Assembly: GCA_963766075.1 (NCBI GenBank)
Contig: CAVYAN010000012.1
Location: 37,507 to 101,506, forward strand
Origin: an uncultured cyanobacterium
Lineage (GTDB): Bacteria > Cyanobacteriota > Cyanobacteriia > Leptolyngbyales > Leptolyngbyaceae
DNA length: 64,000 nucleotides
Reading direction: 5' to 3'
The notes beneath the pieces were generated by a model. That model did no database searches and was not told the DNA's origin. It saw nothing but the letters and a program-made list of their open reading frames with translations. Of this stretch, positions 20,329 through 28,906 are shown one piece after another; position 1 is the first letter of the stretch; each line of letters begins with the position of its first letter. The position numbers were made by a program, and so were the translations under genes.

Positions 20329-20607
20329 ATGAAATCTGACCCCATGCCCAGACAACTTACGATCGCCCAAGCGCAACAACAATTGCCGAACTTCCCCAAC
20401 GATCTCACCGACGAACCCATTATCATCACCCAAGATGGTGTTCCGGTCATCGCGGCCCTTAGCTATGTCCACCTCGCCGAATTGCTCGAAACTTTAGATA
20501 TTCTCACTGACACGGAATTTGTCACGAAGCTGCGCCAAAGCATGCTTCAGTCAACAGAAGGCAACACCATTGATTGGGAGAGCGCCAAAGTCCAACTGGG
20601 ATTATGA
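20329..20607 (+). CDS. Phd/YefM family antitoxin
   Basis: LTIAQAQQQL...PIIITQDGVPV...LLETLDIL; overlaps the toxin start. Confidence 0.85.
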   Translation: MKSDPMPRQLTIAQAQQQLPNFPNDLTDEPIIITQDGVPVIAALSYVHLAELLETLDILTDTEFVTKLRQSMLQSTEGNTIDWESAKVQLGL

Positions 20608-20927
20608 GCGAGGCAAATCCGATTGCATACCAAATTCAACTCACAGCCTTGGCCCTAGAAATGCTGGCTGCGGTTAAAGATCGGCGAGAGCAAGAAAAAC
20701 TGGGCGATCGCATTGACCAACTCAAAAGCGAACCTGAAAAACAAGGTAAAGCTTTGTTAGACAACCTTTCTGGCTTTCGCAGCATTCGAGCGGTTGGGCA
20801 GCGCTATCGCATCGTCTATAAGGTTGAGTCAGAGCGAGTCCTGGTTTTAGTCGTGGGCATTGGCAGGCGCAAGGATGGCGACAAAAAAGATATTTACACC
20901 GTGCTGGCAAAATTAATGGGCGAGTAA
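20604..20927 (+). CDS. RelE/ParE family toxin
   Basis: GKALLDNLSGFRSIRAVGQRYRIVYKV. Confidence 0.88.
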   Translation: MSEANPIAYQIQLTALALEMLAAVKDRREQEKLGDRIDQLKSEPEKQGKALLDNLSGFRSIRAVGQRYRIVYKVESERVLVLVVGIGRRKDGDKKDIYTVLAKLMGE

Positions 20928-20973: not shown

Positions 20974-21840
20974 ATGCCTCGCCAACCGCGTCAACTCAAA
21001 CCTGCCTTGTGCTATCACATTACGCTGCGCTGCAACAATCGCGAGTTTCGCCTGACCCGCTTTGAATGTCGGGAAGTGTTGCTGTATGCGATTCAGAAAT
21101 ACCGGAATCGATACGGCTTTAAGCTCTATGCGCTGTGCATCATGAGCAATCATGTGCATTATCTCCTGGAGCCGTTGCAGCCAGAGGATTTGCCTAAAAT
21201 CATGCAGGGGTTGAACTGGTATACCGCCATGTGTTTTAACCGCATGCAGAACCGGACGGGCCACTTTTGGGAGAAGCGGTATCACAGTACGGCGGTGCCG
21301 AATGGGGATCATCGCCGGGTGCTGAATACACTGCGGTATATTCACGGCAATCCCAAGGCGGCCCAGATGCAGCAGGGCTGGTTTTATGACTTTAGCAACT
21401 ACGGCACCTATGATCGCCTGACGGATGATGGCCTGACCCAGTGGCATCCGGCGTTTTTGGCGTTGGGGACGACGCTGGATATTTGTGCGGCGGCCTATCG
21501 CAAGTTTTGTCAGAAGTATCGTCCGATGCCCAAGTCGGAGCGGCGGAGCCACTGGGGAAGCAAGCTGTTAGCGAAGCTGAAGACCAAGGGCAAGCCCAAG
21601 AAAGTAAGTCCAGGGCAAAAGAGTTTGTGGGAGGAGTGGGAGGCACCGATGGCGGAAATTGAGGAGGTGGCGGAAAAGTTTGTGCGGGCGAATGCCTATA
21701 ACCCGGAGATTGCCAGCCTACAATTTAGTTCGTCTAAATTTTATTCCGAAAATGAGCTGGAGGCGATGGGGCGGTGCCAGGTACCGGATCCTGAAAATGC
21801 CGATTCCAGGGTCGATTCAGACCCAGGTGAAAATCTTTAA
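20974..21840 (+). CDS. REP-associated Y1 (HUH) tyrosine transposase, RAYT-like
   Basis: YHITLRCNNR, MSNHVH (HUH), GHFWEKRY, YIHGNP (catalytic Tyr). Confidence 0.88.
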   Translation: MPRQPRQLKPALCYHITLRCNNREFRLTRFECREVLLYAIQKYRNRYGFKLYALCIMSNHVHYLLEPLQPEDLPKIMQGLNWYTAMCFNRMQNRTGHFWEKRYHSTAVPNGDHRRVLNTLRYIHGNPKAAQMQQGWFYDFSNYGTYDRLTDDGLTQWHPAFLALGTTLDICAAAYRKFCQKYRPMPKSERRSHWGSKLLAKLKTKGKPKKVSPGQKSLWEEWEAPMAEIEEVAEKFVRANAYNPEIASLQFSSSKFYSENELEAMGRCQVPDPENADSRVDSDPGENL

Positions 21841-21862
21841 AAACGGCTAAGAGCCAGACGTG

Positions 21863-24172
21863 CTACAGTTTACAAGTCTCCACGCGAGAGAAGAGAACCA
21901 ACCACCCAACCCAAACTCCCAACAAACCCCACCCTACCAACCCCCTCGGTAATTCTCCAATGAGGGAATTTAGGGGATCGTATTTGAGGTCGGTGCTGCT
22001 CACCCAGTGATTATCCTTGCGCCAGCCGACGCGATCGCCAAACTTTTCCCAGATTTCATCGCTTGGGTACTTGCCGTCTAGTGTAGCACCGCATTCGGCG
22101 TAGATTTTTTTCTGCACGCTAAAGCCAAATTTGCCGTTGCTGTACTGCACCCACAGCCGATCCAGAATCAATAAGTCCTCGCAGGGAAAATTTTCCAGAT
22201 CTTTCCGGTCAAACCATTGCCCCTCTTCCTTACCCACCGTGGTGATCATCAGCCGATAGGTCTCCTGGTCGGCTTCGCGCCACTGCCCCGCCTGCATCAT
22301 CGCCTCCAGGGCCGCGTAGCGCGAGGTTTCCACCGTTTGCCGAAGCTGTTCAATGGCCGCTGTCAGGGCTGGGGGAATCTGCTTCGTGGTTTCGGGCAAA
22401 CAGGCATAGGCCAGGTCTGCCGCGCCGCGATCCAGCATGGCTTGGATCAGGCTACTGGGATTTTTGACTTGGGCCGCGTAGAGCAAAAGGGTGGGTTTCC
22501 ATTCCAGATCCGTAAATCGCTCATACAGCAAACTTTCCTGCTGCTGTTGCAGAATTTCCCGCGCTGCTAAATATTCCTGAAAGCTCCAATGGGCAAACTC
22601 GTAGGTATCGGCGTCTTTTTCCACCAGCAGTTCGCTAATCTGCACCACAGCGTCGAGAAACTGCTGGGCCTCAGCGGTTTCATTTTCGGCCTGGAGATGG
22701 GCAGCTAGCCGTCGCCGCAGCGTCGTCCGATCAATGCTCTTTTCGCGGCCATTCAGCAGCATTTCCAGGGCTAGCCGCTGCAAAATTTTCTGAGCATCAG
22801 ACTCGATGAGCAACGTTTCCAGGGCTTTGGCCCCCGGACGATGCTTCAGTTGCAGATCACAAATGCCTTGGTACAGTTCCACCCGACGATCCGGCAGCTT
22901 GGCCGTGGGATTCAAGCGGTGAAAGGCGGTGATCATGTTCAGCAACAAGGGAATACTAGCCAAATCCTGAATTTCCGGTCGGGCCTGGATTTGGCTGAGC
23001 AATTCCTCGGCGGCCTCATTGGCGGCAGCCCGGACATCCGCCCCATCGCGCCCATTGTTGGCGTAGCGCTCTTGGTACAGGTAGCACTGCTGCACAAATT
23101 GCCGCTGCTGGGTCAGGTCAAACGGTTCCACCCACAGGGTCATCCGCATTTCTAGCCGATTGGTTTCGGCCTGCTGGCGGTAGGCTTTAGGGCGCGAAGT
23201 CAGGATAAAAATGGAGGCACTTTTGCTGTACTGCTGCATTTGCTGGTTAATCCAGGTGGCAATCACGGCCTGCTTATCCTTCGGCACTTCATCCAGACCA
23301 TCCAGCAGCACCAGCATTTTGCCCTGCTTCAGCAAATTTTTGGCCCAATCGGGCGGCAGCTTGACTTCACCGCCTCCGGGCAGGCGGGCCACATGGTACA
23401 TTTCAATCACGTGACCAAGCTGGGCAGCGGCTCCAGTTAGCTCCTGGGTGGCCAAGCACTTTTTCCAGCAGTCGCCCAGGGACAACAATACGGGCACCCG
23501 CGCCGACACGCCATAGCGCTGCTGCTGCTGACTGCTGTAGATGTAGGCAATGTGTTTGAGCAGCGTCGTTTTGCCGAAGCCGCCCCAAGCCACGATCGCC
23601 ATTTGCCGAAAGAGGGGCTGCTGTTCGGCTTGCTTCAGCAAATGCCAAATTTTGAAATGTCTGCTCTGGAGGTGGCTCAACTGCTCACGTTCCTGGCCTT
23701 GCAGGGTTTGCCACCCGGCGGCGATCGCCCCGGTATCCAGGGTCAAATCCACAAAGATTTCTTCCAGCAGAGGCACATAGCTCTGCATGATGCCCTGGCA
23801 GCGATCGGTCTGGCAGTCGAGTTTCTGCGCTTCTAAGTACTTGGCGTCAACGCCTGTGGCTTTGGCGATCGCGTTTTGAGCGGTTTTCTCGGCGGCGGTT
23901 GCGCTCGCTTCACCAATTTGATCCGCACCCTTTTTGATTTTCTTGAGCGTTGGCTCCACGAGGGCATAGAGGATGGTTCCTCCGCCCAAAATGCCCGCGC
24001 CAACGGGGACTTGCAGCCAATTACTCGTGCTGATCAGGGAAACTAGCCCTCCGGCACCACTGGCTAAAACTACTGGGACGGCTTTTTTGAGGAGCCATTC
24101 CGCCGCTTTCTCATTCCGCTGTTGTTCTGGCATACCGATAAATTGGGGGGCGATGGGGAGGAGCGATCGCAA
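21863..24172 (-). CDS. NACHT (STAND) NTPase with C-terminal GUN4 domain
   Basis: GGFGKTT Walker A, LLDGLDE Walker B, PLLL, FAHWSFQEYLAA; GUN4 motifs WREADQET, FPCEDL, SNGKFGFSVQKKI, FGDRVGWR. Confidence 0.9.
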   Translation of the reverse strand: MRSLLPIAPQFIGMPEQQRNEKAAEWLLKKAVPVVLASGAGGLVSLISTSNWLQVPVGAGILGGGTILYALVEPTLKKIKKGADQIGEASATAAEKTAQNAIAKATGVDAKYLEAQKLDCQTDRCQGIMQSYVPLLEEIFVDLTLDTGAIAAGWQTLQGQEREQLSHLQSRHFKIWHLLKQAEQQPLFRQMAIVAWGGFGKTTLLKHIAYIYSSQQQQRYGVSARVPVLLSLGDCWKKCLATQELTGAAAQLGHVIEMYHVARLPGGGEVKLPPDWAKNLLKQGKMLVLLDGLDEVPKDKQAVIATWINQQMQQYSKSASIFILTSRPKAYRQQAETNRLEMRMTLWVEPFDLTQQRQFVQQCYLYQERYANNGRDGADVRAAANEAAEELLSQIQARPEIQDLASIPLLLNMITAFHRLNPTAKLPDRRVELYQGICDLQLKHRPGAKALETLLIESDAQKILQRLALEMLLNGREKSIDRTTLRRRLAAHLQAENETAEAQQFLDAVVQISELLVEKDADTYEFAHWSFQEYLAAREILQQQQESLLYERFTDLEWKPTLLLYAAQVKNPSSLIQAMLDRGAADLAYACLPETTKQIPPALTAAIEQLRQTVETSRYAALEAMMQAGQWREADQETYRLMITTVGKEEGQWFDRKDLENFPCEDLLILDRLWVQYSNGKFGFSVQKKIYAECGATLDGKYPSDEIWEKFGDRVGWRKDNHWVSSTDLKYDPLNSLIGELPRGLVGWGLLGVWVGWLVLFSRVETCKL

Positions 24173-27781: not shown

Positions 27782-28906
27782 AGTAGCTAGGCACAATTAA
27801 ATATAAAACGCTCTAGCGCATAATCACCGGACTGACTACGAGATTCCATGCCCTGCATCACAGCTTTCGCCAGGTCATATTGATTGTCGAACATCTGACC
27901 CGCGATTTCATGGGTCTTGAGTTGGTGCCATTGACCTTCAATGGGATTCATTTCTGAACAATAGGGGCAGAGAAAATGAATCAATAACCCCTTGGCTTCC
28001 CACTTTTGCCAGTGTTCACGGGTTAGGCGACTGGTATGCAAAGACCCATTATCTTGCACCACCACCGTCAAACGCCCAGTTTCGGCTAACCTTTGGGCGG
28101 CTTTTTCAGCCACCCAATCCATGACCTTGATGTAACTCGCACTCTTGAAGCCCCCTTGGGCTAGGGCATACTCAAAGGACTCGCCCGGTTGCCAGAGTCC
28201 CAGTATGCTAATGCGATTGCCATAGCGTTGGGCCGTTTGCTCCATGCACTTCTGTTCGCCGATCCGACTGTAGCTGTAGCTGACCGGACTCCACAGGCAG
28301 AATCCCGATTCGTCGAGATACTTTAAGTCGATATGTCCTTCCTGCTGGGCTAACTGCAAGGTCTCCAAATCCGCTAGTTTCAAGGCTTTTTTGACAGGGT
28401 CTTGATTGTTGCGATGGCGATGGCGGGTCCGTTTCCACCGATAGTCTTTTTTTTGAGTAAGCGCCGCAAACGGTCACTACTCAAATCAACTAAGCGCTCC
28501 TGTTTGAGCTTCTTGGCCAGTTGCACACTATTGTAGGTGCGCGGTTCTGCCTCGATACAGGCACTCAGGTAGTCTAAATCGGATGCTTGCCATCTCGGTT
28601 TCGCTCCCCGTCCCGGCGCTTCCCATAATCCCCCTAATCCTTTGCTTTCCCAGCGCCGCAATGTTGCTCGGACTGTATGCTCATGACAATCGAAGATTTC
28701 TGCTATCTTCGGGACAGTCCAGCCTTCTGCATTTAAGCGCAGCATATGGGCTCGATCTCGCGTCCGCTGCGGTACAGTTTTCGCCTCACGCAATTCCGCT
28801 AAGGTGCGATCCTCTTCTACCGTTAACTTGATTCGTAGCGGCGCAGGCATATATTCTCTCGACAAAAATACTCTTCCTATCTTACATTTAATTGCGCCCT
28901 CCTACT
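27782..28906 (-). mobile_element. IS630-family insertion sequence
   Basis: Imperfect terminal inverted repeats AGTAGCTAGGCACAATTAAAT / AGTAGGAGGGCGCAATTAAAT, flanked by TA at 27780-81 and 28907-08. Confidence 0.92.
27787..28865 (-). CDS. IS630 transposase (HTH ORF + DDE ORF joined by a -1 frameshift)
   Basis: YLDESGF, VQDNGSLH, SEMNPIE; A8G slippery run at 28446-28454 gives KKDYRWKR after a -1 shift. Confidence 0.9.

Follow-up and report, generated by a model that had tools for sequence, protein, structure and literature searches.

To our knowledge bacteria have few known targeted diversifiers, which work by copying templates or shuffling cassettes. Diversity-generating retroelements (DGRs), for instance, substitute at template adenines. 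For marine picocyanobacteria, Laurenceau et al. (preprint, bioRxiv 10.1101/2020.03.09.984088) described tnpA_REP genes that face procA, proposed diversifying recombination, and termed the link unique to these organisms; no recognition motif is named in their main text. As far as PMC8266576 covers the chemistry of such enzymes in the part drawn on here, cleavage by HUH enzymes yields a 5'-phosphotyrosine along with a free 3'-OH, usable for priming synthesis or for rejoining, and E. coli TnpA_REP cleaves at C|T and requires the 3' C to rejoin.

Here we analyse a stretch of 64,000 nucleotides (nt) from an uncultured cyanobacterium of the Leptolyngbyaceae, hereafter the window (G000:C12:37507-101506, where G000 is the organism's own genome of 5.05 Mb), in which a Y1-HUH gene stands tail to tail with a gene for a NACHT-GUN4 protein that ends in a hypervariable G/T-rich tract. 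We put at roughly 0.7 the probability that nicking by the HUH enzyme at a site defined in cis, followed by error-prone repair of the ends, diversifies this target, a causal role that we infer from the comparisons below. An earlier note, made from the letters of the window alone, had read the locus as a candidate diversification system that works without reverse transcriptase. Its proposals on gene linkage, hypervariability, loop position, the lack of a template and the lack of a reverse transcriptase in the cassette have all been borne out, whereas its proposal that hairpins are the signal has not. In the literature searched, which was mostly without subscription papers, no paper on a GUN4-HUH link was found.

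The variable tract and its cis element

As previously described, positions 21896-21945 are nearly all C and A on the + strand (19 A, 29 C, 2 T, 0 G); their minus strand encodes GLVGWGLLGVWVGWLV between the ordinary flanks GELPR and LFSRVETCKL*, and the stops of the two convergent genes lie 22 nt apart. The target protein (P0129 in our protein collection) has a NACHT domain at residues 198-362 and a GUN4 domain at residues 615-743, and the tract occupies the place of the LxNxLR bilin-binding motif, which is retained in a GUN4 orthologue on contig C46 of the same genome that has no such tract. In the portion of PMC10156173 cited here, LxNxLR lines the GUN4 bilin pocket and is absent from paralogues. 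Since the tract replaces LxNxLR, we rejected the identity of the target as true GUN4, the Mg-chelatase cofactor. The same replacement places the variable segment at the ligand- or bilin-binding loop, as had been supposed, although binding itself is a prediction from sequence. A single-sequence model of GUN4 was poor (predicted local distance difference test score, pLDDT, 57) and was not used.

Stretches with at least 38 G or T among 40 letters, on either strand, occur in four regions of the genome (the window tract, C66, C74 and a poly-G run on C81), and four regions attain an equal level for purines or pyrimidines, so that composition alone proves little and the tract is rare, not unique. It is the location of the tract, rather than its composition, that exceeds chance: all four copies of the element in G000 have a G/T-rich stretch directly upstream. 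The C81 run (G000:C81:56730-56834), about 100 nt of pure G, is probably an assembly artefact. No template for the window tract was found, in agreement with the earlier note: none of its 18-mers occurs elsewhere in the genome, and a single 16-mer recurs. Capture of genomic sequence was rejected on similar grounds, since two long tracts from other loci had no match in their own genomes better than E 0.06.

Among 92 elements found, 70 were parsed, the other 22 being dropped because their left border was not found; kinship exists among the loci counted here and below, and kin are dependent, not independent, observations. In the 70 copies the tracts have a median length of 53 nt (range 9-157), are spread over the three frames (28/19/23), and consist of 44% G, 31% T, 15% A and 10% C, with at least 80% G+T in 31. 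Only two contain an in-frame stop, and conservation jumps at both the left and the right tract border. Direct copies of the flanks occur inside the tracts: four of the right flank, where 60 shuffles gave 0.7 (maximum 3), and seven of the left flank, where they gave 1.4 (maximum 7), the longest being 30 nt. Three other sources were rejected: snap-back copying of the reverse complement of the flanks (2 vs 2.7 and 0 vs 0.9) and tandem duplication within the tracts as the principal source (7 vs 5.2) were not enriched, and a CCA-like periodicity was not apparent (TGG 1.26-fold, similar to GGG at 1.28 and TTT at 1.5).

The predicted hypervariability between fixed flanks is illustrated by four GUN4 proteins that share all 758 upstream residues and carry four different tracts in two end frames, the left part of the tract often being common. 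The 90% cluster to which they belong has 15 listed members, and the 13 of these that were splittable have nine tails between them; clusters 1, 3, 5, 6 and 7 were also variable, and cluster 4 had one tract in 11 of 15 members. In a second batch, six NACHT clusters were variable and one was uniform, and six Nostocales kinase clusters were stable. In DNA comparisons, 13 pairs had near-identical flanks, and in 12 of them the tract identity was only 0.08-0.57.

On its right side the tract ends at an anchor, which is followed at a fixed distance by a conserved motif (Table 1). From the anchor CTCTTCTCTCGC to the motif TACCTGGCAC there are 111-114 nt in 68 of the 70 copies and 124 nt in the remaining two, and 43 copies of the element align without gaps. 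Across the 70 copies, conservation over positions -1 to +3 is 66, 63, 87, 89 and 99%, and at 21893/21892 the border passes from a C (89%) to a T (99%). In 66 of the 70 elements all three frames hit a stop within 20 codons, so that the protein ends in LFSRxETC, SSLAxRLV or LLSRxDL; the element thus supplies a usable protein end in any frame, and changes of length are tolerated. Of 63 full-length HUH genes, 59 have the motif after their start, among them all 13 from picocyanobacteria (chance near 11% by arithmetic), and since in the GUN4 branch its distance to the target is fixed while its distance and frame relative to the HUH gene vary, it is a DNA signal there. A two-block pattern of the element matched 44 of 401 genomes, against one match for a reversed control. 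One HUH sub-branch (L068-L072, genomes G109 and G383) has a different anchor, CTTCCCTCCTG, with motif and spacing unchanged.

Cases in which one part of this element has been lost serve as natural controls. The thirteenth of the above pairs (L084/L085) has kept the HUH gene and the motif and lost the anchor, and its A-rich tract is 97% identical. In L137, L139 and L140, which have tandem GUN4 domains, the anchor is kept and the motif is lost; the motif-less tracts of L139 and L140 are 94% and 100% identical, and one L137 tract still resembles that of a domain just 76% identical. Intact HUH genes are encoded elsewhere in genomes G718 and G632. These three pairs fit a requirement for both anchor and motif, in cis, for the tract to vary. 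A search with the exact frozen Nostocales gene returned relatives only. As a separate observation, L137, L139 and L140 have three tandem GUN4 domains per gene, each with its own frozen tract and anchor, which may represent a fossil repertoire.

The earlier note had placed the signal in three hairpins near the end of the HUH gene. All three exist as described, but the middle one alone overlies the conserved motif, the region shows no better folding than shuffled versions of it (z -0.18 to -0.50), and 43 homologous elements have no shared structure (consensus -0.06 kcal/mol), so that the expected conservation of the hairpins did not materialise. It is a sequence element of fixed spacing, and not the hairpins, that forms the conserved signal. 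An RNA gene was rejected (no Rfam match at E<=1), and promoter and terminator scans gave background levels.

Table 1. Features of the HUH-GUN4 locus, in positions of the window
Feature	Position	Strand	Basis or remark
NACHT-GUN4 target gene, 769 aa/codons from TTG start; ATG 39 nt further in	21863..24172	-	
Left border, G-x-x-P codons (GELP here, GHLP in most)	21947..21958	-	left-aligned profile
Hypervariable G/T-rich tract, 51 nt, 17 codons	21896..21946	-	GELP codons to anchor
Anchor CTCTTCTCTCGCG, sharp right border of tract; candidate nick 21893/21892 (C|T), inferred	21883..21895	-	
Fixed-length cis element, anchor to motif	21774..21895	-	
Conserved 10-nt motif TACCTGGCAC, near-dyad, candidate HUH binding site	21774..21783	-	common to three HUH branches
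Y1-HUH gene (TnpA_REP/RAYT class 2), 288 aa	20974..21840	+	Pfam Y1_Tnp E 1.3e-18

The HUH gene, its copies and its sister branches

The HVH and YIHGNP motifs of the window HUH protein are the HUH and Y---NP motifs by which TnpA_REP/RAYT proteins are recognised, and in H60-V-H62 and Y122-I-H-x-N126-P127 the residues H60, H62, Y122, N126 and P127 are invariant across 40 homologues. The top PDB fold match of its structural model (pLDDT 66.6) is the E. coli RAYT 4er8 (E 1.8e-7); a search of the HUH profile against PDB sequences gave no matches. NCBIfam REP_Tyr_transpos (NF047646) is the top family, with 69.5 bits, below its curated cut-off of 80. The protein is conserved to about residue 250, and its final ~35 codons are non-conserved read-through across the cis element. 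Two other identities were rejected. For IS200/IS605, Y---NP stands instead of Y---Q, NF033573 scores 24 bits against a cut-off of 55, no second end was found for 63 HUH genes, and no third gene recurs in 43 neighbourhoods. For a REPtron, there is no conserved structure, the genome holds four element copies, and nothing is conserved upstream of the HUH genes. The window cassette is not a DGR, not an insertion sequence and not a REPtron.

HUH queries led to 26 named cyanobacterial loci; 15 of 41 relatives gave matches, as did 43 of the 401 genomes from the phylum. Among the loci obtained by HUH query (L001-L055 and L068-L087, excluding the picocyanobacterial L036), requiring at least 50% identity and an alignment that reaches residue 225 left 56 distinct matches, 55 of them with 700 nt of downstream DNA. 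The HUH gene faces a GUN4 domain within 1 kb at 51 of these 55 loci, which supports the linkage that the earlier note had raised for this HUH clade, and the element is present at 48. In 43 neighbourhoods the only recurring families are HUH and GUN4, at 40 loci each, the next family occurring in four; an antisense frame of the HUH gene recurs in nine. No reverse transcriptase is found in these 43 neighbourhoods, as an RT-independent cassette would have it, and no helper polymerase recurs there, a LigD-Pol match being present in one of five genomes. One exact pattern, used to look for phage occurrence, had no matches in viral contigs. The GUN4 domain has NACHT, kinase, caspase, TIR and TPR partners, and some loci are plasmid-borne.

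The genome of the window holds further copies. On C72 another NACHT-GUN4 gene stands opposite another HUH gene (77.6% identical), and its G/T tract differs although the flanks are the same; C20 has a broken GUN4 copy with a third tract; and C119 (G000:C119:39386-39560) has an orphan element which, though no GUN4 gene is present, is still bordered by a G/T stretch at its anchor edge. The C119 element directly follows two small genes that by eye resemble a HicAB pair. A pair encoding a Phd/YefM-like antitoxin and a ParE-like toxin lies immediately 5' of the window HUH gene (20329-20927, +), and small toxin-antitoxin-like genes are also found beside the C72 and C119 copies. Repeated GC-clamped palindromes of the CCCCCTTAAAAAGGGGG type occur near several cassettes (G000:C20:1090-1420, L029, L080). 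Elsewhere, GUN4 copies at L157, L162 and L164 have a shorter, divergent element and an altered motif, two of them beside a more distant HUH gene (55-59%), and at L010 and L014 an extra copy of the motif just upstream of the HUH start hints at tandem cassettes. Further along the window, two adjoining open reading frames (27787-28865, -) resemble by eye a split IS630-family transposase.

Judging by gene layout and motif, the system extends past GUN4 to precursors of ribosomally synthesised peptides with post-translational modifications (RiPPs), which the earlier note had missed. Picocyanobacterial HUH proteins (about 46% identity), placed in TnpA_REP subclass 2.1 by the Laurenceau preprint (10.1101/2020.03.09.984088), are encoded in genomes of family f2 (2.4-2.9 Mb), where they face Nif11-leader peptides (Pfam Nif11); the fixed part is here about 80 nt. 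The same branch also faces proteins of 320-340 residues with variable tails, whose nearest named clusters have IAT_beta in 43% of members. A third HUH branch (59-65% identity) faces cyanobactin precursors (TIGR04446, TIGR03678) and, at L034, one peptide judged by eye to be Nif11-like. In 11 of 17 cyanobactin precursors the motif lies 115-122 nt past the stop, and in 16 of 17 the border begins with CCTT or TCTT; a strict cyanobactin-plus-motif pattern was found in one of 301 genomes, a sample poor in the relevant families. Multi-copy proteins of 320-380 residues at L088-L092, L094, L095, L101-L103 and L036, automatically named 'carbamoyl-phosphate synthase', resemble inverse-autotransporter beta-barrels; in them a conserved NRDVRVHD precedes a tail that varies, often contains Cys and faces the HUH gene. 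Such targets are unmentioned in the main text of preprint 10.1101/2020.03.09.984088.

In a FastTree phylogeny of 75 rows, the GUN4 (support 83), RiPP (94) and picocyanobacterial (92) branches are apart; rows L075 and L156 were labelled RiPP though no target was recognised. A quick IQ-TREE run united the three branches against the outgroups with a Shimodaira-Hasegawa-like approximate likelihood ratio test (SH-aLRT) value of 97 and leaves the order among them open, and the two trees conflict over whether the GUN4 group is one branch. The three target types track the three HUH branches. In G318, a single-contig, 99% complete genome of a sister branch, six HUH genes of this kind are present, whereas neither RVT_1 nor LigD gave a match. 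The occurrence of related HUH genes with a common motif beside all these variable segments suggests that one template-free diversifying machine may lie behind GUN4, prochlorosin and cyanobactin variation.

Proposed mechanism and alternatives

In the mechanism that we propose, the Y1-HUH enzyme would bind the conserved motif, nick one strand at the anchor 112 nt away and, going by HUH chemistry, remain on the 5' end. The free 3' end would then be trimmed, slip and be extended by host enzymes before the ends are rejoined, so that the segment from GxxP to the anchor would be replaced by new sequence of new length. By position, the segment is the ligand-binding loop in the GUN4 paralogue with which NACHT, kinase, caspase or TIR proteins are capped, and binding may be altered accordingly. 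Sister HUH branches, for which association and motif are observed, would act likewise on RiPP cores and beta-barrel tails. The anchor and flank duplications are compatible with either strand, and the G/T bias could stem from a biased polymerase, from deamination of the exposed single strand or from selection in all frames.

Several points weigh against a causal role of the HUH enzyme. The frozen controls are three pairs only, two of them from one gene, and the 12 variable pairs are not independent, six of them involving four copies in G109 and G383; among the loci of these pairs, L057 stops short of the motif and in L071 the motif is broken. A HUH match at E<=1e-40 is present in only 20 of the 44 element-positive genomes (a hand count of listings), and of five element-positive genomes without a strong HUH match that were rechecked, three had none at 1e-5 and two had fragments or weak matches. 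Tract G+T is 0.78 with an intact adjacent HUH gene (n=32) and 0.75 without (n=15; p=0.45). Polarity is not strict, as the proteins P0540 and P0541 have a common right end but different left parts. The variable parts in picocyanobacteria have no G/T bias, and in the RiPP branch the HUH reading frame contains the motif, so that coding may account for part of its conservation there. No raw reads of the same strain were found, the four runs examined yielding relatives' contigs only. Finally, the authors of preprint 10.1101/2020.03.09.984088 later took back their causal claim, noting no strong evidence for or against causation.

One may also consider that the HUH enzyme moves or copies a unit made of the GUN4 domain, the element and its own gene, a selfish one-ended mobile unit whose cutting leaves the tract as a non-adaptive scar. 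Paralogous identity over ~1.3 kb, from the GUN4 domain to just beyond the HUH start, in G109 and G383 is in favour of this, as are elements joined to unrelated DNA (L017, C119), the common broken copies (C20, L024) and the plasmid loci. However, 63 HUH genes have no conserved second end upstream, a scar of this kind is hard to reconcile with in-frame stops in just 2 of 70 tracts, and three unrelated target types all vary on a functional surface (ligand loop, RiPP core). We therefore regard this scenario as unlikely.

Alternatively, the host itself may make the hotspot, by slippage, a G-quadruplex or recombination in a G-rich stretch that is selected to be stop-free and hydrophobic in every frame, with the HUH gene hitchhiking. 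G-rich runs are indeed present, elements persist without HUH, and G+T is independent of an adjacent HUH gene. Four-fold sites have a G+T of 0.75 in tracts vs 0.43 upstream, yet since constant frameshifting exposes all codon positions to protein selection, this test leaves a host-made hotspot standing. What makes it improbable is that G/T-rich tracts are frozen in motif-less copies, that internal repeats are not enriched (7 vs 5.2), that the unbiased picocyanobacterial and cyanobactin targets vary as well, and that fixed spacing and a shared motif are left unaccounted for.

A remote DGR, or gene conversion from silent cassettes, appears very improbable. Four RVT_1 matches do occur elsewhere in G000, and in similar multidomain proteins it is the C-terminal domain that cyanobacterial DGRs vary. 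Tract length (9-157 nt) and frame change, however, unlike in adenine-specific substitution at fixed length; neither the window tract nor two long tracts have a template in their own genomes, and there is no reverse transcriptase in the 43 neighbourhoods and no match to one in G318. This reading is close to refuted. A base-calling or assembly artefact, such as two-colour dye dropout yielding G/T, has a virtually negligible chance in spite of the C81 poly-G run and the missing reads of this strain, for the frame is open, 70 loci have such tracts at one and the same codon in many assemblies, single-contig genomes and plasmid NC_010632 among them, and identical tracts recur in independent records: the tract is real.

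The HUH-driven reading can also be widened to a general class of cyanobacterial diversifiers without reverse transcriptase, template or cassette, in which one Y1-HUH family uses a shared 10-16-nt motif and a branch-specific nick distance, and end repair writes the sequence; we consider the chances of this to be about even. If true, it would explain GUN4 loops, prochlorosin cores, cyanobactin cores and beta-barrel tails together, and the system would be re-aimable by moving an element of ~120 nt, resembling V(D)J junctional diversity.

Comparison with known systems

In the accounts of cyanobacterial DGRs drawn on here (parts of PMC7517822 and PMC7159879), a variable ligand-binding C-terminal domain is likewise found on NACHT, kinase, caspase or TIR proteins, with several targets per genome and a downstream cis signal. 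Unlike DGRs, the present locus has a HUH enzyme rather than a reverse transcriptase, no template repeat, changes of length and frame, and a GUN4 rather than a C-type lectin fold. GUN4 paralogues on NACHT, kinase and caspase proteins are candidates for a second antibody-like sensor repertoire beside the lectin domains of DGRs. With TnpA_REP/RAYT proteins, as partly described in 10.1101/279083 and PMC8266576, the window HUH protein shares the HUH and Y---NP motifs, a 4er8-like fold, low copy number and a C|T step at a fixed border; unlike the TnpA_REP/REP pairs of those accounts, it comes with no GTAG-foot REP hairpin, repeat population or conserved structure, and its site lies in or beside a protein-coding segment.

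Transposase genes have been seen in cyanobactin clusters before. Within the sections cited, PMC9366434 reports ISpagF in clusters of seven Planktothrix strains and PMC6162287 an ORF5 transposase between sphE and sphF, neither being assigned a role. Like the HUH genes here, these are single-copy transposases of about 700-820 bp in clusters whose precursors have hypervariable cores, and, matched by description and not by sequence, they likely belong to the RiPP HUH branch. For the origin of hypervariable prochlorosin and cyanobactin cores between conserved flanks, the locus offers candidates for the enzyme, the binding motif and the cut site, along with natural site-loss controls, and with these the question becomes one for a direct nicking or reporter assay. 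Libraries, too, could be built with a cassette of two parts whose action in vivo randomises both length and sequence.

The closest relative is the procA-tnpA_REP pair, with which the locus shares one HUH clade (SH-aLRT 97, quick tree), a tail-to-tail layout, a conserved spacer, an indel-rich variable segment and a proposed part in diversification. Unlike there, the target is the ligand loop of a NACHT-GUN4 protein, within the gene, and not a lanthipeptide precursor, and the locus has a G/T-biased tract, three alternative ends, a defined shared motif and natural loss-of-site controls. A HUH-linked diversifier as such is proposed and unproven; what is new here, relative to the prochlorosin proposal, is three target classes, a motif shared among them, a candidate cut site and natural controls.

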